Of a stretch of 64,000 nucleotides of DNA, positions 2,271 through 61,977 are shown piece by piece (positions within the stretch are counted from its first letter, which is position 1; every line of letters begins with the position of its first letter). This DNA is from Polyangia bacterium (GTDB taxonomy: Bacteria > Myxococcota_A > Polyangia > Palsa-1104 > SHYY01). The stretch is from NCBI GenBank assembly GCA_036263495.1, contig DATAGU010000153.1, forward strand, positions 4,611 through 68,610, given 5' to 3'. The position numbers were made by a program, and so were the translations under genes. The notes under the pieces are model-generated. The model was not told the DNA's origin, did not search any database, and was given only the letters and a program-made list of their open reading frames with translations.

Positions 2271-2292
2271 GTTCCTGGGCTCCTATGTCCGA

Positions 2293-2952
2293 CTACCGGT
2301 TATTGCCCGTGTCGTTGCCGGTGCCCGACGTGCCGAGGTTGCCGCCACCCTGCACGTTGCGGTGCGCCTTCTTGTGGCGGCCCTGCCGCTTGATGCTGTG
2401 GCGGTGGTGACGCACGCTGCCCTGCGCGCCGAAGCGGCTACCGGTGTCGGAGCGGCCCTGCACGTTGCCCTGGCCCTGGGACCCCTGCATGTTGCCCTGG
2501 CCCTGGGACCCCTGCACGTTGCCCCGATCCTGAGAGCCACCGAGGGTGGATCCGGCGGTACCCTGCTGGCTGCCGGTATTTCCTCCCAGCGTGTCTTGTC
2601 CGGTGCCGGTGGTGCCGCGCTGCTCCGTGCCACCCAGGTTGCCCGGGGTGCCTTGGTTGCCCTGCGCACCGAGGTTGCCCTGCGTACCCTGGCTGCCCTG
2701 CGCGCCCTGATGGCCGGTGTCACCCGTGCGGGGACCGACGAGGGTGCCGCGGGGCTCGGTGCCGAAGCTCGACGAATCCTGGGTGGCCTGGCGGTCAGGG
2801 TTCCAGGGGCCTCCGGCCTTGCTGCCGGGCTGGGTGGGCATGGTGCCCTGGCCCGTGACGCCGGCGCCGGACTGCGCCAGCGCGCTCGCCGACCAGGTGA
2901 GGCTGGCGGCCAAGAGTCCCGTCTGGATAAGACGCCCGATCGTTCGCGTCAT
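2293..2952 (-). CDS. Secreted Gly/Gln/Thr-rich low-complexity repeat protein
   Basis: N-terminal signal peptide (MTRTIGRLIQTGLLAASLTWSASALAQS), then GxQG-type repeats (QGSQGQGNMQGSQGQGNVQG) and a basic His-rich C-terminus. Confidence 0.45.
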   Translation of the reverse strand: MTRTIGRLIQTGLLAASLTWSASALAQSGAGVTGQGTMPTQPGSKAGGPWNPDRQATQDSSSFGTEPRGTLVGPRTGDTGHQGAQGSQGTQGNLGAQGNQGTPGNLGGTEQRGTTGTGQDTLGGNTGSQQGTAGSTLGGSQDRGNVQGSQGQGNMQGSQGQGNVQGRSDTGSRFGAQGSVRHHRHSIKRQGRHKKAHRNVQGGGNLGTSGTGNDTGNNR

Positions 2953-3078
2953 GTTCTTCTCCTTGAAGATGGATCGCCCGTCTGCATGTCCCGGGCTGGT
3001 TATTCCCCCCGACGCCGGAACTCATTTGCATGGGCCATTCCAGCCGCAGCGAGCCGCGGGGTGAGGCGCGCGCCGTCG

Positions 3079-3534
3079 TCAGACGCGCTGCTCTGCGCCA
3101 CTCTCCTGCAGGAGCTGATCGAACCGCTCCTTGAGCTCCCTGCCGAGGTCGTCGAGCATGTCGTTGGTCCACAGGCTCTCGACCCGCGGCAGGAGCTCCT
3201 GCTCCTCGATGCCGACGTGCTCGAGCACGAGCTGCTCGACGCGGTCGAGGAGGTCGATGAGCGAGGGATCGCCAGGGTCCGCGGTCTCGACGTCGCGCAG
3301 CGCCAGCACCGCCTGCTGGTGCTGATCGAAGCTCGTCGAGATGAGGTCCTCGAAGCCCTCCTTGTGTTCGAACCGCGGATAGAAGAGCTCCTCCTCGATG
3401 GTGTTGTGGCTGCGCAGCATCTGGGCCAGCTGGTTGCAGAGCTGCCGCTGCTCGTCGCCCTCCGTGTCCCGGATCTGCTGGAACAGCGCCTTCACTTCGT
3501 TGTGTTGCCTGCGAAGTAGATCGGTGGCCTTCAT
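3079..3534 (-). CDS. Hemerythrin HHE cation-binding domain protein
   Basis: 151 aa; LRSHNTIEEELFYPRFEHKEG... with H/E spacing typical of hemerythrin-like domains. Confidence 0.75.
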   Translation of the reverse strand: MKATDLLRRQHNEVKALFQQIRDTEGDEQRQLCNQLAQMLRSHNTIEEELFYPRFEHKEGFEDLISTSFDQHQQAVLALRDVETADPGDPSLIDLLDRVEQLVLEHVGIEEQELLPRVESLWTNDMLDDLGRELKERFDQLLQESGAEQRV

Positions 3535-3769
3535 CCCGTCCTCCTCGGGGGCCTGCCCTGCCGGAACTGCTCCGGATCGCCCCCACGCTCGGGAGAAGCA
3601 AGGAGGATTCCATCAGGGAGAACGACCCGGAGCGAGGAGACGCGCCGGTCCCCGGGCCTCGATCGCCGGCCGGCACGGGCGCGGGGGCGGGCATCTTTTG
3701 GCGAGCCCCGAGGGCCCGTGTTATCCGTCAGTCCGGGTCCGGACGGACCGGACCAAGGAGGCTGCTCCG

Positions 3770-6911: not shown

Positions 6912-7961
6912 ATGAGTGAGCCCATCTTTTCCGAACCGGGGGCCGAACCGGCCGAACCGGGGGCCGAACCGGCCGCCGATTCGGCCCCCGCGGCAGGGCC
7001 TCCTTCGCCGCCGCCGCCGCCCTTCGACAATCCCGCCTGGGAGGGCAAATACCATGAGGAGCTCGAGCTCCTCCTGAACCCGCGGCAGCTCGGGGACAAG
7101 ACCCTCCTCCTCCTCGTCACGCTCGCGCTCTTCGTGGCGTCGTCCTGGGTCTCCGACCTCGAGACCTCGATGCGCAAGCTGCTCCTCCTCGTCGGCGTGC
7201 TGTTCTTCCATGAGGCGGGGCATTGGATCGGCATGCGCGCGTTCGGCTATCGCGACGTGCGCATGTTCTTCATCCCCTTCTTCGGCGCCGCCGTGTCGGG
7301 CGCGCGGGCCGGCGCCGCGGGGTGGAAGGAGGCCGTGGTGCTGCTGCTCGGGCCGCTGCCCGGGATCTGCGTCGGCCTCGGGTTCGCGGTCCATCAGGTG
7401 GTGGGCGGCGATCTATCGTCCTGGATGCGGGAGCTCGCCCTGTACCTCCTCTTCGTCAACGGGCTGAACCTGCTCCCGCTCGCCCCGCTGGATGGGGGGC
7501 GGCTCTTCCAGCTGGTCTTGTTCTCACGGCAGCGGCACCTCGAGATCGCCTTCATGGCGCTCGGCGCGCTGGCCCTCCTGGTCGGCGGGCTCCTCACGTC
7601 GAGCTGGGTCCTGGCGATCTTCGGCTTCTTCCTCCTGCGCGGGCTGCCGCACATGTGGCGCCTCATCCGTGAGGCGGCGCGGCTGCGCGAGCGTTTTCCC
7701 GGGCTCCCGGCCGAGGCTCATCTCCTCGGTGACGAGGAGTGCCGCGCGCTCTTTTTAGCGGCGCGCGACGTCCTGCCCGAGCAGCTCCTGCCCCGGCGAG
7801 GGGCGATGGCGCCCACCATGGCCAACATCCTCGAGCGCACGTCGCAGCACCCGCCCGGGTGGTTGGCGTCGCTCGGGATCCTGCTCGTGTGGGGCGTGGC
7901 CTTGCTGGTGATGCTGGGGAGCGCGGCGATCATCGTCGCCCACTCGCCCGCCGCCGCGTAG
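6912..7961 (+). CDS. Site-2 protease family (peptidase M50) membrane metalloprotease
   Basis: HEAGHW (HExxH) and NLLPLAPLDGG (LDG) motifs, multiple TM segments, Pro/Ala-rich N-terminus. Confidence 0.8.
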   Translation: MSEPIFSEPGAEPAEPGAEPAADSAPAAGPPSPPPPPFDNPAWEGKYHEELELLLNPRQLGDKTLLLLVTLALFVASSWVSDLETSMRKLLLLVGVLFFHEAGHWIGMRAFGYRDVRMFFIPFFGAAVSGARAGAAGWKEAVVLLLGPLPGICVGLGFAVHQVVGGDLSSWMRELALYLLFVNGLNLLPLAPLDGGRLFQLVLFSRQRHLEIAFMALGALALLVGGLLTSSWVLAIFGFFLLRGLPHMWRLIREAARLRERFPGLPAEAHLLGDEECRALFLAARDVLPEQLLPRRGAMAPTMANILERTSQHPPGWLASLGILLVWGVALLVMLGSAAIIVAHSPAAA

Positions 7962-12313: not shown

Positions 12314-13175
12314 CTACTGCGCGGCTTGCGCGGGCGAGCTCCCGGTCTGGGGCGCCTGCGCGGCCGCGAGCGCCGGAGCGGCGGCGCCGGGCGCATCCGT
12401 GGACGTGACGGCCGCCTGCGTCGGCGGCGTCGCGCCTCCCTGATCGTTCTCCGCGTCGCCCGCGGTCTGACCCGGGCGGCGGCGCGAGGGGCGCACGCGG
12501 TCGGCCAGCTCCCGCTCGCCCGCCAGGCGCAGGAAGCCCGCCACCACCATCGCCGCACCGGCGAAGAACGCGTCATAATCACTGATCGAGCGGTTCTTCT
12601 GGGTCTGGGTCACCTGGGCCTCGCGCACCTCGCGCGCCACCTCGTCGAGGTGTCTCTCGAGGTCGCGGGCGAGGCCGGGGAGCCGGCTCGTGATCTGCGC
12701 GACGTCGATGGTGGCGCCGGCCAGGCGCGGCGGCGGCAGGGGGATCTTGCCGAGCGCCTCCACCACCTGACGGCCGAGGCGCATGAGCTGCACCGGATCG
12801 TCGGGGGTATCGCCCTCGAGACCGAGGGCGCGCACGATGCCCGGGCCGTAGAGGGCGCGCGTGAGGTCGCGCAGGCTGATGATCTCGGCCGCGAGGGCGT
12901 CGCGCGCCTGGTCGCGGGCCTGGCGCGGGGCGTCGTCGTCGCTCAGCTCGAGCTCGTGCGTCTCGTCGGCGCTCATCATCACGTCGGCCGAGCCGCGCTG
13001 GGCGCGGCCGATGAGCTCCACGACGAGGGTGAAGTCGGGCAGCTGTTCGTCTGGACGGAGGTAGGGGGTAAAGAGGCTGGTGAGCGCCTGGCCGATGCGC
13101 TCTCCATAGGTATCGGCGGCGGCGGCAACGGCGGTGGCACTCTTCTGGCGGTCGGCAACGAGTTTGGAGGGCATG
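12314..13175 (-). CDS. Hypothetical protein with an Ala/Pro-rich C-terminus
   Basis: AGGAGA precedes ATG at ~13175 (MPSKLVADRQKS...). The longer extension to 13480 translates the palindromic repeat array and is probably not coding. Confidence 0.45.
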
Positions 13176-13295
13176 GCGTTCTCCTGTTGAGGAAGGGGTT
13201 GGGGAGCAGATGGCAGGAGGTCTAGCGCAAGAAATCTGGCGGGCAAGGCGAATGGACGAAAAATTTCACTTCGGGTGGACATGGACGGGGCTTTT

Positions 13296-13500
13296 GGTGT
13301 GCCAACCCACATTCCCGCGGCGGGGGAGGGGGTCGGCGAACGGAAAATGGCGTTCCCCGCAGCGGGGAACGCGATGAGCGAACGGCCAGGAGCGGATCCC
13401 GCAGCGGGAAACGCGATGGGCGAAAGGAAAGGGGCCGAAAACGCGGCGGGGGCAGGGATGATTCGTGTGCCAGCCCACATTCCCGCGGCGGGGCAGGGGA
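13296..13500. repeat. Array of five CCCGC-N(1-3)-GCGGG palindromes in ~42-bp repeating units
   Basis: TTCCCCGCAGCGGGGAA (perfect 17-nt palindrome, ~13350), ATCCCGCAGCGGGAAA (~13392), and CATTCCCGCGGCGGGG twice (13306 and 13475). Each is followed by aacgcgatg(a/g)gcgaa. Confidence 0.6.
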
Positions 13501-13987
13501 TTGGCGCAGGAAAGGAGGCGGAGGAGCCAGCGGGGAAGGGGATTGACGCCCGCGGTGCCCTGCCGATCCCCTTCAGAGTATGGGCTGGTAGGGCGCAGGG
13601 TCGAACCGGAGGCGAGCGGTCGCCGAGAGGAGAGCGTGGCCCCGCAGCGACGGGAGAGGTGCGCGCCGCCCCGGGAACGCGAGTGAGTTCGAGCGATCCT
13701 ATCGATAGATGTTTGAATACATCAGAGTGTTCTGATGCGTGTGTAATTTTGTATTTCGATAGAAGGCACCGAAAAAAATGCGCCGGATCGGAGGCTGCGG
13801 AGATCGATCAGAGGGGCACTTTTCCGTCGAGGAGCGTCTCTCGAAAATCCCTCGGTAAGGGAGCACACAGGAATAGAAGACAATATACAAATGCGACCTC
13901 ATCAATCGAAATAATCTTTACATCGGAACAACGAGCGTGTTATTCGATAGTCAACGGTCGAAACACAAAGAAGCACGGAGGCCCACC

Positions 13988-26121: not shown

Positions 26122-26482
26122 CGTGAGACCCCTTCACCCGAGCAGCGGTAGGTCGCTGCTTCTATGCTCAAGCAGCATCGATGCCAGTCACCGCGCGGCC
26201 TCTGATGTGCAGGGTCGCTCCGCGCTCTGGGGTCCTCGGCCCACGCTGATGTCGCTGGGCCGAGCGGTGCTCCAGTTGCCTGCGGAGTCGCGCTCCGGAC
26301 CCTGCACATCAGAGGCCTCGCACACGCTCGGCAGGATCGTACGGGGAGCCGTATCTGCGACGGCGATTCAGGACGTCGCGCGCGGTGCGTGCGGGACGGG
26401 GGCAGCGGCTGGAGCGGGCGTTGTGCTTTTTTGAAGGGCCTCAGGGGGGGCGAGGCCTGCCGCGTCCGACGGCGGAGTGGTT

Positions 26483-26950: not shown

Positions 26951-27065
26951 GTGCCACGATCCGCGTCTTCAGAGAAGCGCGGCTCCGCCCACGTCGCCAG
27001 GCCATGCCCCACCGCCATGCGATGGTCAGGAGAGTGAGAGTCTAACGAGCTGGCAGAAAGGCATG
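26951..27065 (-). pseudogene. Duplicated toxin leader plus the first ~18 toxin codons, fused directly upstream of the GNAT gene
   Basis: 27006-27060 matches 29062-29120 and 61932-61975 (..catgcgatggtcaggagagYgagagtct..). It encodes MAWRRGRSRASLKTRIVAH (compare MALRRWRTLSCIRQHSL of the intact toxin), then shifts frame into GNAT. Confidence 0.5.
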
Positions 27066-27094
27066 TTTCGCGGGAGCGGGCGTGAGTGCGGGCG

Positions 27095-27673
27095 TTACTC
27101 GCCGACCGGCTTGAAGTAGGCGCCGACCAGGCCCTTGTCTTCGACCAGCGCCTTGAACTCGGCGGAGACCAGGTCGTGAAGCAGGCACTGCTTGCATTTG
27201 AAGAGATGGTGGCCGTCGGTGCTGCCGGGTTTGAAAGCATACTCTTCGACGATCATGATTTCCCCATCGGAATACCGCCGGACCTTCGAGCGCTCTTCAT
27301 CTAGGCAATCGACGATGTCGAGTATGTTCACAACCTGGAAGCGCCCAGGCCCATCGTGGGCGAGTGGTAAGAGTTCAATCCCGTCGCCGATAAGGGGTGC
27401 CAAGACCTCTGCCGCGCGATTTGAGAGAGCCAGACCATGACCCATGAGACCGATGAAGTCGACGGGCTTGCCGCGATTCTGCCGCACTGTGGCCCGCGTC
27501 CACTCCATGGGCACGGGTTCCCACCAGTCTGCACAGCGTACGCCCTCTGACAGCCTCCCGAAGATTGGAGACCATCCGCCAGGCCGGGATCCTAGAACGG
27601 TCAGCAGGTCATCGTGCTTATCTGGATTTGGATCCAGACGAAAAATCTTCGGCGGTGGAGAACTTTGGATCAT
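27095..27673 (-). CDS. Putative immunity protein for the adjacent AHH-nuclease toxin
   Basis: The ATG overlaps the toxin's TGA as ATGA (27670-27673). 192 aa, no signal peptide. Homologous 3' fragments recur at 59398-59652. Confidence 0.5.
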   Translation of the reverse strand: MIQSSPPPKIFRLDPNPDKHDDLLTVLGSRPGGWSPIFGRLSEGVRCADWWEPVPMEWTRATVRQNRGKPVDFIGLMGHGLALSNRAAEVLAPLIGDGIELLPLAHDGPGRFQVVNILDIVDCLDEERSKVRRYSDGEIMIVEEYAFKPGSTDGHHLFKCKQCLLHDLVSAEFKALVEDKGLVGAYFKPVGE

Positions 27674-29061
27674 GGAGGAAATGCTCCGTTCTGTATCTGT
27701 TGTGCAATGTCCCGCAACGCCTCGATCATCTTGGCACGCTGACCACTCCTCTCGGCCCGCAGGAGGCGAAAAAAAACTTCTCGAATCGCCGCCTTCATAT
27801 GGAGCCCGCGCCCCACATGCTGGCTCTGTGTCAGCACGACACCATTGTCCACGCTGTTGACGTCGATGCCGAACCGATCGAGGATTTCGCGTGCATCCTC
27901 CGCCTCGCGGTGCGTGCTTGGGACGATATGGTGTACTGCCTCGCTGGAGGCCAATTTCCTCCCGAGTTTCTTCTCGAGTGCTGCGCGTAGTCGGTCGGCA
28001 TTGGCGGATGTATCCCACTGCTGCGTCGAGGTGAAGCCGGGCGGCCGGCTACCACCGCCGCCAACCGAGTTGGTGCCGCGCAATCCCTGGGCGCGTGCCG
28101 TCTGCGCCGGCGTGAGTTCGCGTAGCGCGACATGAAGCATGGCCGCCGCCTGACCCATCCGGCGAGCTTCCACGAGCGCCCAGACCTCGACTTCGCTGAG
28201 CGCCAACGTCCTCGCCGTGGCTCCCGTGCCGATGACGAGCGCCAACGGGCCGCCGCCCGCACTGGTGGCGGTGACGGCCCAATACGCTTGCCCCATGCCC
28301 GGCCCTTGGGATGCCCCACGCCGCAGGAAGTCCACCAGCCGCCCGAGCCCCGACAGGTTCCCGAGTTCCTTGAGGAGCTCCGGGCCATGACCCACCAGCC
28401 GGGCGGCCGTCCACGCGGTACTGACCAGCGCCGCGGCCTGGATGCCGGCGTTGCCGGTCGCGATGCCCTTGATGGTGTCGACGAGGCTCTCCGTCTTGCG
28501 CCAGGCATCGGCGTGCAGCCTCCGCGCCTCGTCCGGCGCACGGTCCATCCAGAAGGGATCCTGTCTGAGTTCGCGGAAGCCGCGCCAGGTGAGGTCGAGC
28601 GCGCCGGTGTCGTAGTCGTTGCTGAGGTTGATTTTGACCGGCGGTGAACCGGCGCCAGGGCTGCGCTCGCACAAGAGGACCGAGAGGTTGAAGGAGGCGA
28701 AATCTCGGCCGTAGGCGATGGCCCGCCGGAGAGCGGCCTGGGCCTCGGGTCCAGCATCGGGCACATCGCCGAGCAGGGAGGCCAGATACTCAAGATGCTG
28801 ATCGAGGGTCTCGTAGTGGGTCTTCCAGGAACCAGTGAAGTAGGGCGCGACCTCCTGAAGCATGAGCGACATGCCGAGGAGATCCCGCCCGAGGTCTTCC
28901 AAGGGCGGTGGGACGCTGCCATCCGAGAAGGCGAGACTGGGCGGCGGCTCGGCCAAGGCGGGCCTGCTCGCAGCAAGGCATCCGAGGACCATGAGCCAGC
29001 GCCAGCCAACAAGAGAATGCTGGCGTATGCAGGAAAGGGTTCGCCAACGTCGCAAGGCCAT
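27670..29061 (-). CDS. Secreted polymorphic-toxin-like protein with a C-terminal AHH (HNH/EndoVII-fold) nuclease domain
   Basis: Sec signal MALRRWRTLSCIRQHSLVGWRWLMVLGCLAASRPALA|EPP, and a C-terminal AHHIVPSTHREAEDAREILDRFGIDVNSVDNGVVLTQSQHVGRGLHMKA motif. Confidence 0.65.
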   Translation of the reverse strand: MALRRWRTLSCIRQHSLVGWRWLMVLGCLAASRPALAEPPPSLAFSDGSVPPPLEDLGRDLLGMSLMLQEVAPYFTGSWKTHYETLDQHLEYLASLLGDVPDAGPEAQAALRRAIAYGRDFASFNLSVLLCERSPGAGSPPVKINLSNDYDTGALDLTWRGFRELRQDPFWMDRAPDEARRLHADAWRKTESLVDTIKGIATGNAGIQAAALVSTAWTAARLVGHGPELLKELGNLSGLGRLVDFLRRGASQGPGMGQAYWAVTATSAGGGPLALVIGTGATARTLALSEVEVWALVEARRMGQAAAMLHVALRELTPAQTARAQGLRGTNSVGGGGSRPPGFTSTQQWDTSANADRLRAALEKKLGRKLASSEAVHHIVPSTHREAEDAREILDRFGIDVNSVDNGVVLTQSQHVGRGLHMKAAIREVFFRLLRAERSGQRAKMIEALRDIAQQIQNGAFPP

Positions 29062-29135
29062 GCTTCACCTCGATGCGATGATCGGGAGAGCGAGAGTCTA
29101 GCGAGCTGGCACCAAGGCATGTTTCGCGGTGCAGC
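29062..29135 (-). promoter_or_regulatory. Conserved 5' leader of the toxin gene (three copies in the window)
   Basis: The ~75 nt upstream of the toxin ATG are near-identical to 27006-27065 and 61932-61985. Confidence 0.4.
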
Positions 29136-29171
29136 CTCGGCGGCGAGGGCATCTCGGCGCAAGGCTGCCTG

Positions 29172-29470
29172 ATGGTGGATCGACCATGTCGACATGATCG
29201 CAGGATATGTCGACATGGTGGATCGACCATGTCGACATGGTCGCGGGATATGTCGACATGGTCACGGGATATGTCGACATGGTCGGGGGATATGTCGACA
29301 TGGTCGGGGGATATGTCGACATAGTCGCGGGATATGTCGACATAGTCGCGGGATATGTCGACATAGTCGCGGGATATGTCGACATGGTCGCGGGATATGT
29401 CGACATGGTGGGTCGACTATGTCGACATGGTCGCGGGATATGTCGACATGGTGGATCAACCATGTTCACA
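29172..29470. repeat. 21-bp tandem repeat array (~14 units, consensus ATGTCGACATGGTCGCGGGAT) containing the palindrome ATGTCGACAT
   Basis: Direct reading shows a near-perfect 21-nt periodicity. All six frames are open (heptapeptide artefact ORFs MSTYPAT and YVDMVAG). Confidence 0.9.
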
Positions 29471-30820: not shown

Positions 30821-31225
30821 TTCCTCGAGCACGCCGGGTCTCCGGTGTGTCGCTCTCTGTGATCCCGATCCTCGGGTGATCTCTACGGGCCTCTTCAGGC
30901 CCGGATATCTCGCGGACAAGGTGCGTATATGTGTGAGCTGGTGCTCGTCGAGCACGACGCCAGCCATTTGTCCCGCGATCCCCTACAGAGCGCCTAAGAC
31001 CCTATAATTCCACATCAATTCCTACATTGAAGGTGTCTCTGCGCCTGGCAGGTTCTCCGCGGCATTTCCGCTCCGATAAAACACAAGCAATATTGAATCT
31101 TTGTGGGATTCTTCTCCCTCTTTTTTGATCACGACTACAAAATCTCGTATTGCTGATCACGGTTTTTCGTTGCGGTGAACGACCGGCGAAGAGCGCAACT
31201 TGCATCAATAGAGATGGGAGGCGCC

Positions 31226-32848
31226 ATGACACTTGCCCACATTTCCGTCCCTGCCTCGGCATTCTCCAGGTCCTCATCGCGATTGATCTCGACCAGGGAC
31301 ACACGCCATCAGGAGCTCCTGGGGGCTCTTCAGCAAGCGGACGTCACGTCTCTGCCGCTGCAAGGGGGCTCGGCGGGCAGCCGTGCGCTGCTGCAGTTCA
31401 TCGAGCAGGAGCTCGAGGAGCCTTATCGCTCGTCGGCGCTGCGGCTCATCGACGGCAAGCCCTGCTTCGAGGCGGAGCCCGCGCGCTTCGACAAGCTGCT
31501 CGCGAGCCTGCGGCAGTATCGCCGGCTGATGTTCGACCGGTTCCTGATGGCGCCGCGGCCCTTCGACGAGTGGCGCGCGCTCCTCGGCAGTACGCTCTAC
31601 GGGGTGGTGAAGTACTCGGTGCGGCTCTATTCGTGGCAGGACGATCCGCACCTGTTCCCGGCGCAGCGGGCGTTGCTGGCGGAGGAGGCGGTGCTGCCGA
31701 TGGTGCTGCTCATCGCGGAGCGCTTCCCGGAGGAGCCGCTGGTGGCGGAGCCGGGGGATCGGTTGACGATGCTGTCGCAGGACTTCACGGCGCTCACCCA
31801 CAAGATGGCGCTCGCGGGGCAGCTCAAGAAGGTGCGCGGGGAGGTGGTGCTGAAGTGGTGCCACGCGAACATCACGAATACGACGCAGCGCTACTGCGAC
31901 GCGCACGGGCGGCCGTGTCTGTCGGCGAAGCTGCAGTCGGCGCTGGCGAGCGTGAAGGTGAAGCTGGTCATCTTCAACATCCTGCTCGACGAGCTGGCGG
32001 ATGACGTGCAGAGCCCGGAGCTGTTCGAGCTCTGTGCGCGGATCCCGTATGCCGGGGAGGGGGTGATCGGGCCGGTGTCACAGGAGCGGCTCGAGGCGCT
32101 CTTGGCCGAGGTGCCGCGGGCCTGGAGGGAGTATTTCGAGCTGGCGGCGCGGGTGTGGAATGCGGCGCTCCGGACGCTCTGTCTGCTGGTCGGGGAGGAG
32201 GCGTTCGTCAAGCACGGGCGGCAGCTCCACTGGGACTATGACCAGATCGTCGAGAGCATGCGCTTTGCGCTGAAGGCGAACCGGATGGCCCCGGACGAGA
32301 TGTTCGAGGACCAGGACGTGGGGATGCTGCTCGCGCACAACATGAACATGATGGCGTTCGAGACGATCGACCGGATGGCGATCGAGCGCGCGGCGCCGGC
32401 GGTGGCGGCGGTGCTGGATCGGGATTTGGCGCTGTATGAGGCGATCCGCGAGATCAATCTCTATCTCCAGTACAACGGCCAGCTCGGCAACTCGATCGCG
32501 ACGCTCGACGCCGAGATCGACGAGAACTGCGTGGCCAATGAGATCGTGCTGTTCGCGCGCAAGCACCGGGCGGGTCGCTGGCTCTTGCAGTGTTTCGCCG
32601 AGCGCCGGGCGGCGCTCGATGATGGGGACGTCGAGGCGTGCGACGCGATCGGGGCGCAGATCCGACAGATCATCGGGCAGACGCAGGCGCGCCGGCGCTA
32701 TCTGGCGCAGTGGGAGGAGATGCGCTGGCGCATCCTCGACGTGATGGATCGGCACCCGGCGATCTGGAAGGTGCTCGACGTGCTGGCGATGATGAAGGCC
32801 AATGACCAGCTCATGATCATGAGCTGGGTGTATCGCGGCGAGATCTGA
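31226..32848 (+). CDS. Large hypothetical alpha-helical protein (about 540 aa)
   Basis: Follows a ~390-bp AT-rich intergenic region. GGGAGG sits just before ATG 31226 (alternative ATG at 31214). No canonical DDxxD/NSE terpene synthase motifs were found. Confidence 0.5.
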
Positions 32849-47190: not shown

Positions 47191-47264
47191 GTAGACAAAT
47201 CTAGTGCAGGAACCGAGAAGTCCTGCCGGGAATCCGTCGACGTGTGTGCCTGCGCATCAGCGTG

Positions 47265-47603
47265 AGAGACGTGGCCACGGGGCCATTCGACATCGCCATG
47301 AGGCCATTCGACGTGGCCACGGGGCCATTCGACGTCGCCATGAGGCCATTCGACGTGGCCACGGGGCCATTCGACGTCGCCAAGAGGCCATTCGACATCG
47401 CCAAGGAGCCATTCGACATCGCCACAGAGCCATTCGACATCGCCACGGGGCCATTCGACGTCGCCATGAGGCCATTCGACGTGGCCACGGGGCCATTCGA
47501 CATCGCCAAGAGGCCATTCGACATCGCCAAGGAGCCATTCGACGTCGCCACAGGGCCATTCGACATCGCCAAGAGGCCATTCGACGTCGCTACCAGGCCG
47601 GAC
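47265..47603. repeat. 21-bp tandem repeat array (~16 units, consensus GCCATTCGACRTSGCCAYGRG), related to the 29.2-kb array
   Basis: Perfect 21-nt periodicity, GACGTC/TCGAC cores, 13/21 positional identity with the array A unit. It is intergenic between NUDIX (stop 47632) and rhomboid (start 47190). All frames are open, giving artefact ORFs PFDVATG and DVEWPLG. Confidence 0.9.
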
Positions 47604-47631
47604 CTCGCGGCGACGGCCGGACAGGGCCGGG

Positions 47632-48120
47632 TCAATGGGGGGTGTGGCCGCCGGGCGGAAGGGCGGGCAGGGGATCGCCTTCGCTGGCGAGGAGTGTGAG
47701 CGGATAGATGGGGGCGCCGGCGGCGACATGGCGGAAGAACGCCTCGACCTCGGGGCTGCGTAGACGCAAGGTCGCGAGCTCCTCCAGGGTCACCCAGGCG
47801 GCGCCGAGGGATTCGGCATCGGGGGTCTGTTTGGGAGGGGTGTCATCGGCGGGGCGGGCGAGGAACACGGCGCGTACGCGAGCACTGTGGGGCCGAGGGC
47901 TATGCTCGATGCGGACGAGGCCCTCGATCACGATGGGGATGCCGGCCTCCTCGAGGGTCTCGCGCCGCGCCGCGGTGAGCAGGTCCTCGCCTGGTTCGAC
48001 CCGTCCGGCGGGCAGATACCAGGGCTGTCCGCGCTCGCGCTCCTGCACCACGAGGAACCGGTCGCCGCGCCGGACCACCACGAGGACGACGAACCAGGTG
48101 GGTATGGGTTCGCGTGCCAT
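47632..48120 (-). CDS. NUDIX hydrolase
   Basis: GRVEPGEDLLTAARRETLEEAGI is the Nudix box (GX5EX7REUXEEXGU). Confidence 0.75.
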   Translation of the reverse strand: MAREPIPTWFVVLVVVRRGDRFLVVQERERGQPWYLPAGRVEPGEDLLTAARRETLEEAGIPIVIEGLVRIEHSPRPHSARVRAVFLARPADDTPPKQTPDAESLGAAWVTLEELATLRLRSPEVEAFFRHVAAGAPIYPLTLLASEGDPLPALPPGGHTPH

Positions 48121-59191: not shown

Positions 59192-59464
59192 CGCTTGTCG
59201 TCCTCCGGCCTGGGCCTGCGGAGAGGGGTGGGTGATCAGCCTCGAATCTCGCCCATTCCATAACACGCAGGTGTGTGGCGGTTCAAGAAAACCGTTGTAA
59301 ATTCAGGGGGGCTCCGCCCCTCCGCCCCGGCGAGCGCGAGCCTCCGCAGCGCCCGCGCGCTCCCACTCCCTTCGTATCATTGTTATGGTGTTATGGTTCG
59401 CGGGGAGGGCGTGAGAGCGGGCGTCCATCGCCGACCGACTGGAAGTAGGCGCCGACCCCCGCCA

Positions 59465-59652
59465 TCGACCGGTGCTCCGACGGTGACATTTCGAGCGTCA
59501 AGAAGTACGCCTTCAAACCCGGCAGCACTGGCGGCCGCCACCTCTTCAAGTGCAAGCCGTGGGGGCTTCACGACCTGGTCTCCGCCGAGTTCAAGGCGCG
59601 GGTAGAAGAAAACGGCCTGATCGGCGCCTACTTCACCCCCGTCGGCGAGTAG
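59465..59652 (+). pseudogene. 3' fragment of an immunity gene homologous to 27095..27673 (orphan immunity remnant)
   Basis: Encodes ...SDGDISSVKKYAFKPGSTGGRHLFKCKPWGLHDLVSAEFKARVEENGLIGAYFTPVGE*, compared with ...SDGEIMIVEEYAFKPGSTDGHHLFKCKQCLLHDLVSAEFKALVEDKGLVGAYFKPVGE*. A second, minus-strand 3' stub (GVGAYFQSVG..., ~59398-59445) abuts it tail-to-tail. Confidence 0.5.
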
Positions 59653-59820: not shown

Positions 59821-60171
59821 TTACGAAATCGAGAACTCGACTTCGATGAGGCTCATCTTTCCCGGGATATTGGTGCTCCACTGGCCGGTAAACCGTCCGC
59901 CGTAGCTGGCTGCGATCGTGGGACCGATCTTCTGCGCCTCGTCGTTATTCCAGAGGGGGCCGGCGGGCACCATGCATTTGAACTTCGTGGGACCCGTATT
60001 GGGATCGGCAGGCAACACCACGTCCACAGTGCTCATGACACTGGGAACGACGGTGCGCCATTGGCCGTTGAACGTGCCGCCGTGAGCGGCCGCCACGGCC
60101 TTGCCCTTGACTTGGGCATCTTCGTTGTTCCAGATCGGACCGGCGGGAATACTGATGGTGTAGGTCGACAT
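59821..60171 (-). CDS. Small tandem-repeat (2 x ~55 aa) lectin-like protein
   Basis: AAGGAGAGAG precedes ATG 60171. The two repeats PAGPIWNNEDAQ...GGTFNGQWRTVVP and PAGPLWNNDEAQ...GGRFTGQWSTNIP are clearly internal duplicates. No signal peptide. Confidence 0.5.
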   Translation of the reverse strand: MSTYTISIPAGPIWNNEDAQVKGKAVAAAHGGTFNGQWRTVVPSVMSTVDVVLPADPNTGPTKFKCMVPAGPLWNNDEAQKIGPTIAASYGGRFTGQWSTNIPGKMSLIEVEFSIS

Positions 60172-60556
60172 GGGGCTCTCTCCTTGTTGGGTGGGCCGCC
60201 TTCTATGAAGACGCGCCGGTGGCGAATTCCAACGGTCGCCCTTCAATAACGGTGGACCCCTACGGCCAACGCTCAGCGCAATCGACGCGATCGGCGCCAT
60301 CTTCGTCCGTACCGACCGAATCGTCGGACCCAGCATTGGTGACGACTGAATCCGAGCGCTCTCATTTCTGGAGAGACATCCATCTCGTCACCTATGCAGG
60401 AAGATCTGAAAGAAATCGCCACCACGCGGGCCAGGGCGTAGCCGGTGTGGACTCCCGCCGCCGGCATCGTGCGAAGAGTCGCGCATAAAGCGAGCCCTCC
60501 CTGTCTCTAGCCCTTGAGGGCTTGTTCCGCCTCTCTCAACACAGGAGAACCCCACC

Positions 60557-61474
60557 ATGACGATCACAATGAACGGTGCCTACTTCAATAATTTGGATCA
60601 AAAGTCTGGCCTCAAGACCGCGCTGGCCCAGATCCAGGGGAGCGTGACGACCGACTACATCCTGTTCAGCCTCAACGTGGCGAGCGGCACCAGCCCCGAC
60701 ATCAACTTCGGGCTCACCGGGCCTGTCCTGGCCACCAACGGACAGGTCGCGCCGGCGACCGGCGACTTGCTGTCGAGCGTCGTGAGCGCGGGCGTCGCCA
60801 AGGGCCACTGCCAGTGGGTCTGGCTCTCCATCGGCGGCTGGGGCTCCAACGCGTTCACGAACATCCAGAACATCCTCACCGCCGGCGGCGCGCCTCGGTC
60901 GACGCTGATCGCCAACTTCGGTGCCATCGTCCAAGCGCTCGGCAGCATCAAAGGCGTCGGGAGCATCGGCTTCGACATGGATTACGAGGAGCAGGGCAGC
61001 GACCTGGCCTCTCTCGTGGCGAGCGTGACCATCGCCCTGAATGACGCGTTCAAATGCCCGATCACCTTCTGTCCATATCAGCAGCTCCCCGTGCCGGATC
61101 CCACCCGCTCCCCGTGGATCCAGGCTCTCCAGCAGGTCTATTCCCAGCAGGGGACCCAGCCCGTCGTCGGCTTCAACCTGCAGACCTATGCCGGTGGTGC
61201 CCTAAACGACCCGAGGGCATGGACGGCGGCCATCGCGAATGCGTCGAACACCGGCGTCTCCGACCCTGCGGCCTTCGTCTGGCCGATCGTCTCTTGTGAC
61301 ACCAGCGCCTCGCCGGTCAGTCCGCCCAGCCAGGTGATTCAGAAGATGAAGGAGTGGGGCTCGCAGGGGGCCTCCCTCTGGGCCACGGCGTCCCTGCCCT
61401 ACGAGGGCAACCCTCTGGCGGCCTACGGCAACGCGATCACCGCCGGCATCACCCCCCCACCGACTCGTCGCTGA
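60557..61474 (+). CDS. GH18-like (chitinase-like / narbonin-like) protein without a signal peptide
   Basis: WLSIGGWG (SIGGW motif) and GFDMDYEE (DxDxE-like catalytic motif region). Confidence 0.55.
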   Translation: MTITMNGAYFNNLDQKSGLKTALAQIQGSVTTDYILFSLNVASGTSPDINFGLTGPVLATNGQVAPATGDLLSSVVSAGVAKGHCQWVWLSIGGWGSNAFTNIQNILTAGGAPRSTLIANFGAIVQALGSIKGVGSIGFDMDYEEQGSDLASLVASVTIALNDAFKCPITFCPYQQLPVPDPTRSPWIQALQQVYSQQGTQPVVGFNLQTYAGGALNDPRAWTAAIANASNTGVSDPAAFVWPIVSCDTSASPVSPPSQVIQKMKEWGSQGASLWATASLPYEGNPLAAYGNAITAGITPPPTRR

Positions 61475-61499: not shown

Positions 61500-61931
61500 C
61501 GAGACGCCGTAGGCTCTCCTATCTTCTCCCAGGCGAACGCCCGAGTCGGGGTTCGTGAGCGCCTCGATCGGACCCGGGCGCCAAGGAGCGTCGGCCTCTA
61601 CGAGGAGCGGCAGCACCGGGATGCTGGCAGCACGGGCGGCATCCACCTCGAAAGGGATCCTGTCTGAGTTCGCGGAAACCACGCCAGGCGAGATCCAGCG
61701 CGCCAGTGCCGTGATCGTTGCTGATGTTCGGTTTGATCAGCGGCGAGCCGGCGCCCGGGCTGCGCTCGCACAAGAGGACCGAGAGGTTGAAGGAGGCGAG
61801 CCGGACGGCGGCTCGGCCAGGGCGGGCATGCTCGCAGCAAGGCATCTAAGGATCACGATCACGAGCCAGCGCCAGCCGAGAGGAGAACCGCCGCGTGCGC
61901 GGGAAAGGGTCCGCCAACGTCGCCAGGCCAT
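61500..61931 (-). pseudogene. Frameshifted and internally deleted N-terminal remnant of the AHH-toxin gene family, with its conserved leader
   Basis: ORF 61737..61931 gives MAWRRWRTLSRARGGSPLGWRWLVIVILRCLAASMPALAEPP (toxin signal peptide). The shifted frame 61519..61845 contains ASFNLSVLLCERSPGAGSPLIKPNISNDHGTGALDLAWRGFRELRQDPF, which matches toxin residues ~125-175. About 230 bp are missing relative to the 28.7-28.9 kb region. Confidence 0.6.
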
Positions 61932-61977
61932 GCTTCACCTCCATGCGATGGTCAGGAGAGCGAGAGTCTTCTCTGGA

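Follow-up and report, generated by a model that had tools for sequence, protein, structure and literature searches.

How might a predicted nuclease toxin, encoded together with its antidote in an otherwise ordinary chromosomal region, reach the cells that it would attack? This question is raised by two overlapping genes in a 64,000-nt stretch of DNA from a Polyangia bacterium, a soil myxobacterium (contig DATAGU010000153.1 of the metagenome-assembled genome (MAG) GCA_036263495.1), the whole of which is called the window here. The toxin gene (27670..29061, minus strand) is an open reading frame (ORF) of 463 amino acids (aa) that comprises a signal peptide, a helical module, a linker, an AHH nuclease core and a variable tail. 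The immunity gene (27095..27673, minus strand) encodes a 192-aa protein with a Pfam match to the Imm11 family, and its start overlaps the toxin stop. We propose that the two genes probably constitute a self-contained, horizontally mobile cassette of ~2.05 kb for competition between bacteria, in which a Sec-exported AHH nuclease is combined with an Imm11 antidote.

The toxin tip and the immunity gene

Within the whole toxin, AHH (PF14412) is the only Pfam family that matches at E<=0.1. The match covers aa 372-456 and profile positions 15-111 of 111 with a score of 38.6 bits against a cut-off of 22.3 (E=1.2e-9), and the NCBI annotation of the protein reads 'AHH domain-containing protein [Polyangia bacterium]'. 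The AHH core (aa 372-422; 27796..27948, minus strand) contains the predicted catalytic or structural residues H377, H378, N406, H415 and H421, which are invariant or nearly so among the window protein and 13 relatives, also when distant AHH relatives are added. The published Tox-AHH signature consists of [AG]HH, N, H, H and Y (Zhang et al. 2012), and the window toxin fits its residues with two deviations. AHH scores of 35-52 bits were obtained for the relatives P0015, P0018 and P0021. An alanine precedes the HH pair in P0018, as well as in four relatives from other phyla (L005, L008, L009 and L010).

The 192-aa protein matches Imm11 (PF07791, formerly DUF1629) with 36.5 bits against a cut-off of 22.1; the match is limited to aa 111-191, in the C-terminal half, and spans profile positions 106-193 of 194. 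Its N-terminus, as read from the sequence, is hydrophilic and has no signal peptide, and the protein is presumably cytoplasmic. At the junction of the two genes (CCTCCATGATCC; in a longer extract, TTTCCTCCATGATCC), the TGA stop of the toxin ORF shares bases with the following ATG of the Imm11 ORF, forming a 4-base ATGA overlap. This overlap and the gene order recur in three independent metagenome contigs (L001, L003 and L004), and an Imm11-like gene is also found downstream of AHH relatives in four other phyla. The literature agrees with this arrangement, in which Imm11 genes sit directly downstream of AHH, HNH or SHH toxin genes. Thus far the reading follows an earlier note on this DNA, made from the sequence alone, which had proposed an AHH-type tip, an ATGA stop/start overlap and a downstream putative immunity protein of 192 aa lacking a signal peptide. 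All three are borne out by the profile searches, the junctions and the N-terminus of the 192-aa protein. The AHHIVPS motif quoted in that note is not what the protein contains, the actual sequence being EAVHHIVPS...QHVGRGLH, that is, V-H-H. The assignment of the tip as a predicted AHH (His-Me-finger) nuclease, coupled in translation to an immunity gene, is supported by these data.

The AHH-Imm11 combination has well-studied precedents. Imm11 was listed among the immunity families of Tox-AHH, with pairing in delta-proteobacteria, and Sec-only export ('T2SS', for type II secretion system) was included among the trafficking modes of Tox-AHH (Zhang et al. 2012). In Myxococcus xanthus, MXAN_0050 is a nuclease (DNase) and MXAN_0049 is its binding immunity protein and the prototype of Imm11, and there are three paralogous pairs. 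The M. xanthus pairs that are delivered by type VI secretion (T6SS) belong to the same families, PF14412 and PF07791, with the immunity gene directly downstream as in the window; there, the toxin is neutralised by the bound immunity protein, the pairs function in kin discrimination, and divergent alleles show graded cross-immunity. By analogy, the AHH tip of the window toxin would act as a nuclease and the Imm11 protein would neutralise it. The two systems differ in delivery, as the M. xanthus toxins rely on the T6SS and are accompanied by a PAAR gene, whereas the window toxin has a Sec signal, lacks any PAAR or T6SS gene in its vicinity, and includes a 270-aa module not reported for the M. 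xanthus toxins.

Boundaries, copies and remnants of the cassette

The extent of the cassette can be read from its occurrences elsewhere. The pair has unrelated neighbours in the three contigs: genes for xanthine dehydrogenase in L001, cytochrome oxidase in L003 and FecR in L004. Between L001 and the window, the DNA is similar only over 29142-27089, i.e., from ~80 nt upstream of the toxin ATG to just past the immunity stop. The 5' part of this region is a conserved leader of ~80 nt (29062..29142, minus strand), which ends in a strong ribosome-binding site, GGAGGTG, located 5 nt upstream of the ATG and retained across the aligned copies of the leader. Leader homology with L001, L004 and a further locus, L012, begins at ~29136-29142, and the flanks are unrelated; L012 has its upstream flank in common with L001, and its similarity to the window starts at the identical boundary. 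The comparison of these loci shows a discrete, evidently mobile unit of ~2.05 kb that sits in four unrelated neighbourhoods. A promoter presumably lies in the leader, where no match to the sigma-70 consensus was found on the coding strand; a sigma-54-like TGG..GC motif spotted by eye differs between the leader copies and was dismissed. A 304-aa gene that follows the pair in L001 was considered as a third cassette gene and rejected, as it resembles nothing in the window. No integrase, transposase, tRNA or Rfam element tied to the cassette was found in the window, and tRNA and Rfam elements were ruled out as integration sites, since the window contains none.

Additional copies of the cassette, in various states of decay, are present within the window. 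A second copy of the leader (26981..27074, minus strand), including the ribosome-binding site, the ATG and ~6 codons, begins ~20 nt past the immunity stop, so that the pair is flanked by a 93-nt direct repeat (26981-27073 and 29037-29129, 85% identity). This copy is 94% identical to the L012 leader. It is probably the eroded start of an adjacent cassette and may, alternatively, be a recombination scar. L004 also has a near-complete leader copy after its immunity gene (7788-7874), mirroring that of the window.

A third, decayed cassette (61642..61969, minus strand) retains the leader and codons 1-38, followed by a deletion with a frameshift and by codons ~121-170, after which it is truncated; codons ~39-120 have been lost. 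It is recognised by tblastn at 61931-61812 and 61800-61651 (minus strand, E down to 5e-22) and by the hidden Markov model (HMM) of the module at 61522-61845 (E=1.5e-18). An orphan Imm11 fragment (59464..59652, plus strand) encodes aa 131-192 and the stop, with 71% identity in tblastn (E=1.5e-23) and an Imm11 profile match at E=1e-24. The two remnants are 2 kb apart, in opposite orientations, and are separated by an MVL lectin gene and a 305-aa ORF. Orphan homologous fragments elsewhere in the window had been anticipated in the earlier note, and the Imm11 fragment confirms this; the remnants of the toxin N-terminus near 61.6-62.0 kb had gone unmentioned. The lectin gene between the remnants (59821-60336, minus strand, likely with its real start near 60162) encodes a two-repeat MVL-type mannan-binding lectin (PF12151, 58.7 bits) in a stretch of lower G+C content; this family is best known from cyanobacteria. 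The 305-aa ORF (60557-61474, plus strand) is convergent with the decayed toxin copy, has a G+C content at third codon positions (GC3) of 0.87, and matches no Pfam or NCBIfam family.

Decay is not confined to the window. Among the homologues, P0010, P0013 and P0014 have internal deletions or frameshifts. In L003, a deletion variant (2290-3713) has the leader and ATG fused, in another frame, to toxin codon ~190 (MEVKHGLA joined to SLVNTIK); it lacks the signal peptide and is still followed by an intact Imm11 gene of 194 aa. A truncated toxin with an intact immunity gene is the asymmetry expected of conflict systems.

It could be asked whether the intact-looking pair is itself an inactive relic, given that decay has affected two of the window's three copies, that three homologues are disrupted as described above, and that its codon usage is atypical. 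Indeed, host genes have a GC3 of 0.90-0.96, compared with 0.83 for the module and 0.67-0.68 for the C-terminal domain and Imm11. We regard this possibility as very improbable: both ORFs are full length with conserved predicted catalytic residues, the ribosome-binding site and the ATGA coupling are intact, full-length 463-aa forms are present in six contigs, and the mature protein is ~80% identical along its whole length and free of disruptions, a sign of purifying selection.

The signal peptide and the helical module

The first 37 residues of the toxin (28951..29061, minus strand) form a predicted signal peptide of the Sec/signal peptidase I type, with positive charges in the n-region, WLMVLGCLAA as the hydrophobic core and a cleavage site between A-L-A and EPPP. 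The A-x-A/EPPP site is kept in all 8 sequences that cover it, and the mean pairwise identity is 0.59 in the signal peptide versus 0.80 in the mature protein. The Kyte-Doolittle maximum of the signal peptide is 1.02. A transmembrane reading of the Gly/Ala-rich stretches is not supported, as their Kyte-Doolittle maximum of 1.24 is below about 1.6. From this pattern, the toxin is presumably secreted.

The cysteine at position 28 within 'VLGC' resembles a lipobox in the window allele and brings to mind the SitA toxins, which combine a lipoprotein signal, an escort domain of ~375 aa and a nuclease tip with an operonic immunity gene. Under this explanation, the window toxin would be an outer-membrane lipoprotein of the SitA5 kind (escort domain, AHH and Imm11), anchored at C28 and handed over to kin cells through outer membrane exchange, which TraAB mediates. 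The likeness is considerable. A ~370-aa N-terminal region precedes a nuclease tip in both, the immunity gene is in the same operon, and the SitA5/SitI5 loci of M. xanthus are ahh-imm11 pairs that also occur in many copies and remnants per genome, often as mobile loci. In M. xanthus DK1622, which has 14 ahh loci and 20 imm11 genes, eight of the ahh loci belong to the SitA5 lipoprotein family and five are T6SS-linked. Moreover, the 'LGC' at aa 26-28 of the window allele, shared with P0003, fits a permissive lipobox, and several SitA families likewise have a fixed tip with allelic variation only.

However, the eight sequences have C, F, C, Y, L, L, F and L at position 28, i.e., the cysteine is present in two (the window allele and P0003) and replaced by F, Y or L in the other six, whereas all SitA orthologues have been reported with lipoboxes. 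The type II signal with a conserved lipobox cysteine that marks SitA toxins is thus lacking in the window toxin family. The toxin is most likely not a SitA-type lipoprotein, as judged from the non-conserved C28 alongside the conserved A-x-A/EPPP site, and this identification was rejected on the same grounds. The library and profile searches also detected no homology to a Sit family: the toxin has no NCBIfam match, although NCBIfam includes at least a SitA6 model, and the 24 matches among 1.84 billion representatives include no large Myxococcus family. Finally, no sitB- or traAB-like gene is present among the annotated ORFs of the window (64 kb of a MAG), and SitA has been studied in Myxococcus, whereas the host here is a Polyangia MAG. 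Taken together, the lipoprotein explanation is quite unlikely, and Sec export of a non-lipoprotein remains the preferred reading.

Downstream of the signal peptide lies a conserved helical module of ~270 aa (aa ~47-316; 28114..28923, minus strand), which has no curated-family match. Its core extends from aa ~47-55 to aa 316 and ends in a conserved 'LT.AEV.AL...' helix, beyond which the relatives diverge; a DP.W motif is invariant in the module alignment. The AlphaFold2 model of the module has a predicted template modelling score (pTM) of 0.58 and is confident for aa ~47-197. The module is followed by a Gly-rich linker and pre-toxin segment (aa 317-371; 27949..28113, minus strand), which is 0.82-0.91 identical in pairwise comparisons across four loci and includes a PPGF.STQQW motif conserved only in AHH-carrying relatives. 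No Pfam or NCBIfam family matched aa 38-371, a profile of the same residues found nothing in the PDB, and the module alone had no Pfam match at E<=1. Pfam searches of the toxin likewise revealed no filamentous haemagglutinin repeats of the CdiA type, no RHS/YD repeats of the Rhs type and no MafB N-terminal domain. The claim of the earlier note that the N-terminal region matches no known delivery domain thus holds for the curated libraries.

Relatives of the toxin are few. A word-indexed search of 5.8 billion proteins retrieved 14, all from Polyangia MAGs or metagenomes, and an exhaustive HMMER search of the 1.84 billion cluster representatives with the module profile retrieved the 24 proteins mentioned above. 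Several of these look spurious, with multiple short stretches of similarity; for example, P0022, when scanned, has TPR, TIR and AAA domains. A word-indexed search with a divergent module alignment returned 0 matches, probably because low-complexity words swamped it, and of two metagenome contig scans with family alignments, one gave nothing and the other a single short locus.

Among the distant relatives, the module is joined to a variety of partners. The module and AHH are combined in P0015, P0018 and P0021. In P0023, P0024 and P0026, the order is eCIS_core (PF13699, formerly DUF4157), the module and then a different C-terminus. The tip of P0024 matches DUF2380, which makes up the toxin part of the model TIGR02269 ('SitA6 family polymorphic toxin lipoprotein'), and the tips of P0023 and P0026 have no family assignment. 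P0031 has an HH...N...H-like tip without a Pfam match, and P0038, found in a second search, combines the module with a WHH/colicin-DNase tip and is followed by a SUKH/SMI1_KNR4 immunity gene. It should be noted that a DUF4157/eCIS_core ('PVC-metallopeptidase') domain at the N-terminus is documented as the mark of toxins that go with extracellular contractile injection systems (eCIS) and is often separated from the toxin tip by a long uncharacterised linker. The window module is homologous to what lies between eCIS_core and the tip in P0023, P0024 and P0026, whose genes are located in or beside contractile-injection operons. Indeed, the operon of P0026 also encodes an AAA ATPase and Pvc16 and has two sheath genes as well as tube genes (locus L013), and the gene for P0024 follows a baseplate gene and is adjacent to an eCIS_core and Imm49 pair.

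Within the contractile-injection operon of L013 (5618-11030; MAG GCA_036277095.1), two adjacent eCIS_core proteins of 788 and 766 aa have only their N-terminal ~210 residues in common, and the module is present in the second only. The neighbour, which has eCIS_core and no module, indicates that such proteins have several alternative middle regions, of which the module is one. A gene of 233 aa with no family matches comes next and may be the immunity gene of the second protein.

The window toxin differs from the eCIS toxins in that a Sec signal takes the place of eCIS_core, and no eCIS genes occur within 64 kb. Loading into a tail tube takes place in the cytoplasm and is incompatible with export by Sec, which makes the window toxin unlike eCIS cargo. 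In the catalogue of polymorphic toxins, Tox-AHH proteins with T2SS trafficking have signature residues that match those of the window toxin, and the module is not described there (Zhang et al. 2012). The earlier note had suggested an undescribed delivery scaffold in a myxobacterial lineage. The module is indeed uncurated, but it is not confined to that lineage, being homologous to the middle region of eCIS_core toxins. We favour a role of the module as a delivery scaffold. A more specific proposal, which we offer as tentative, is that it may be a self-contained cell-entry domain that carries the nuclease tip across the target envelope, whatever the exit route from the producer.

Tip variation, proposed mode of action and window context

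Mean pairwise identity is ~0.80 in the module, the linker and the AHH core and falls to 0.57 in the last 41 residues, a hypervariable C-terminal tail (aa 423-463; 27673..27795, minus strand) that is predicted to form two helices and is a candidate surface for immunity specificity. Across the four loci with both genes, the tail is 0.44-0.61 identical, compared with 0.75-0.82 for the core and 0.69-0.77 for Imm11. The tail is also the most confident part of the full-length AlphaFold2 model, with a predicted local distance difference test (pLDDT) score of 75-89. The best two-segment split of the toxin gene by GC3 falls after codon 425 (0.80 versus 0.51), and the first ~50 Imm11 codons are equally low. 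The resulting GC3 trough of ~0.5 at 27550-27795, over the last ~40 toxin codons and the first ~50 Imm11 codons, matches the lowest protein identity in both genes. The drop in identity and the GC3 trough together suggest that the toxin tail and the start of Imm11 form a diversification hot-spot. From the graded cross-immunity of the M. xanthus pairs, we infer by analogy that the tail contributes to immunity specificity. Covariation between the divergence of the tail and that of Imm11 showed no clear trend in six non-independent pairs.

On a larger scale, the two halves of the toxin have travelled separately. A scan of one genome per species with the alignment of the C-terminal domain identified seven loci in Oscillatoria, Anaerolineales, Planctomycetaceae and Thermoanaerobaculia and recovered none in Myxococcus. 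Their AHH domains are 37-46% identical to that of the window, and nearly all of these AHH genes precede an Imm11-like gene with the window-type C-terminal signature. The N-termini of these proteins are mutually unrelated; one protein of >1400 aa has an eCIS_core-like N-terminus with HExxH. Both halves of the toxin are thus found with other partners, suggesting modules that recombine over long evolutionary distances, following the logic of polymorphic toxins. The hallmark of such toxins, one N-terminal region with alternative tips and immunities, is seen at the superfamily level (AHH with Imm11, WHH with SUKH, DUF2380 and unassigned tips) and not within the close family, in which, unlike Zhang-type polymorphic toxins, no tip swapping is observed. 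The expectation of the earlier note that the C-terminus varies among homologues was therefore borne out in part: the last ~40 residues vary and tips are swapped in distant relatives, but close homologues always carry AHH.

Assuming that the two genes act as a Sec-exported nuclease and its antidote, the following mode of action can be envisaged. The toxin would leave the producer cytoplasm by means of its Sec signal peptide, and onward release might occur by type II secretion, in vesicles or through surface exposure, all of which are possible. The AHH tip would act as a metal-dependent His-Me-finger (HNH/EndoVII-fold) nuclease that degrades nucleic acid in the cytoplasm of the target. Imm11, translated from the same mRNA through the ATGA coupling and presumably in roughly equal amounts, would stay in the producer cytoplasm and bind the C-terminal domain of the toxin, so that neither the producer nor its kin would be harmed by toxin that folds too early for export or that comes back in from sibling cells. 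The last ~40 toxin residues probably decide which immunity allele neutralises which toxin allele, and the targets would be related cells that lack the matching allele. As for the module, a role after release is the more likely one, because it serves both a Sec-exported family and injection cargo that is loaded in the cytoplasm. It would most likely act as an escort or entry domain, in receptor binding or membrane translocation, as the SitA escort and colicin translocation domains do. In SitA toxins, the N-terminal escort domain decides the entry route, and chimeras have demonstrated that the pathway by which a nuclease tip enters can be set by ~375 aa of N-terminal sequence.

A similar functional logic is known from the nuclease colicins and S-type pyocins, such as colicins E7 and E9 with Im7 and Im9, which have uptake domains, a C-terminal His-Me-finger DNase with a variable surface by the active site, and a linked immunity gene. 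The window pair shares this logic, whereas no relation in sequence or fold was found between colicins and its N-terminal region. Furthermore, colicins have no signal peptide and are released by lysis, and the window has no lysis gene.

Several observations weigh against the cassette as proposed. As for the two deviations from the Tox-AHH signature, the residue before HH is V in the close family, where A or G is expected, and the final Y is F430 in the window allele and Y, F, V, L or I in the relatives. The full-length AlphaFold2 model, based on 14 sequences, is poor (pLDDT 41.7) and did not confirm the predicted nuclease fold; a Foldseek search of this model against the PDB gave no significant match, and no sequence relative of the toxin was found among solved structures. 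The tip is AHH in all 13 of the close homologues with Pfam annotation (precomputed for 13 of 14, the fourteenth being a 214-aa fragment), which amounts to a fixed fusion with allelic variation and without the cassette swapping typical of polymorphic toxins. The 64-kb window encodes no secretion machinery, receptor or lysis gene; specifically, no T6SS, PAAR, eCIS, two-partner secretion or Rhs genes were found among its scanned ORFs, no sheath, tube or baseplate genes in the window, and no eCIS_core (PF13699), PAAR, VgrG or MIX domain in the toxin, the adjacent genes or the other scanned ORFs. Finally, the NCBI gene call begins at a TTG at codon 36 and yields a 428-aa protein without the signal peptide (codons 1-36 correspond to 28954-29061).

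The last of these points opens the way to another explanation, in which the signal peptide is not real, translation starts near codon 36, and the toxin is a cytoplasmic cargo of a contractile injection system or a T6SS encoded elsewhere in the genome. The module's distant relatives, being eCIS cargo-type proteins within eCIS operons, would fit such a cargo, as would the T6SS delivery of AHH toxins in M. xanthus. Nevertheless, the T6SS-delivered AHH toxins of M. xanthus are paired with a PAAR gene, of which the window has none, and the absence of eCIS_core, PAAR, VgrG and MIX noted above likewise speaks against a cargo. The start codon itself also argues for the longer form. The 37 upstream codons are open in frame, without stops, in eight sequences, with ~59% aa identity and a preserved n-h-c pattern, and the strong, conserved GGAGGTG lies 5 nt before the ATG. 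For these reasons we prefer the 463-aa form, at which six metagenomic homologues have also been called, and consider it to be correct. An injected cargo is accordingly an unlikely description of the window toxin.

The surroundings of the presumably Sec-exported toxin and its predicted antidote bear on one further explanation. Except for the cassette and its remnants, the window is ordinary chromosome of ~70% G+C, including a starch/glycogen utilisation cluster (isoamylase, amylases, pullulanase and a LamB porin) and genes for NAD synthase, valyl-tRNA synthetase, kinases and a response regulator. As predators, myxobacteria release hydrolases, and the window is otherwise rich in secreted polysaccharide hydrolases. 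The toxin could be a nuclease that serves nutrition or predation and whose inhibitor stays inside the cell, comparable to barnase-barstar or NucA-NuiA; it would then act on extracellular or prey nucleic acid and not enter competitors; a Sec signal without any recognised translocation or receptor-binding domain would suit such an enzyme. By contrast, a 270-aa module reused with three other tips and in injection cargo is hard to reconcile with a simple digestive enzyme, while a hypervariable tail next to the immunity gene, an orphan immunity fragment, decayed copies and mobility between unrelated loci, as seen here, are characteristic of conflict systems, and AHH-Imm11 pairs act in kin discrimination wherever tested. 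A purely digestive role has, in our estimate, a low probability.

The immediate neighbours of the cassette are a GNAT acetyltransferase gene downstream and, upstream, a tandem array followed by an ORF without family matches. The array (29186-29452) consists of ~12.6 copies of a 21-nt unit (ATGTCGACATGGTCGCGGGAT), each containing the palindrome ATGTCGACAT, and generates spurious heptad-repeat ORFs on both strands. It adjoins the 5' boundary of the cassette and has no second occurrence in the window; because none of the 14 other loci retrieved contains it, it was ruled out as a part of the cassette. Another tandem array, unrelated to the first and made up of 15.4 copies of a 21-nt unit (GACGTCGCCACGGGGCCATTC), is located at 47268-47590, in or next to an ORF without a Pfam match (47205-47699, plus strand) and beside a rhomboid protease gene. 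A 24-nt inverted repeat (26193-26216 and 26298-26321), whose arms are 96% complementary and 81 nt apart, lies in the intergenic region between an FG-GAP repeat gene and the GNAT gene. Two long ORFs (31175-32848, plus strand, and 12314-13807, minus strand) have a strong coding signal (GC3 0.78-0.90) without a Pfam match.

The AHH-Imm11 pair in itself is ordinary and already known in myxobacteria, and the literature on Myxococcus covers most of this biology. If the module is only a spacer, the cassette is another member of a very common class of toxin-immunity systems. What is new is the Sec-signal, non-lipoprotein AHH-Imm11 scaffold in Polyangia, as well as the uncurated module of ~270 aa that joins these Polyangia toxins to eCIS cargo toxins with other tips. 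The module is a concrete candidate for the role of the long middle regions in injection-system cargo toxins and offers a compact scaffold for chimeras. Were it an entry domain, this would explain its position behind both a Sec signal peptide and the eCIS_core marker and would assign a function to at least one long 'linker' of eCIS toxins, and the Polyangia family would in that case bear the trace of a change in delivery between injected and secreted toxins. Kin discrimination in Myxococcus depends in large part on AHH-Imm11 pairs, which are delivered there only by the T6SS or as SitA lipoproteins. The Sec-signal, non-lipoprotein version suggests a third myxobacterial delivery route, secreted or vesicle-borne and bacteriocin-like, and it would extend the repertoires of self/non-self toxins to Polyangia, a class in which they have not been studied before.

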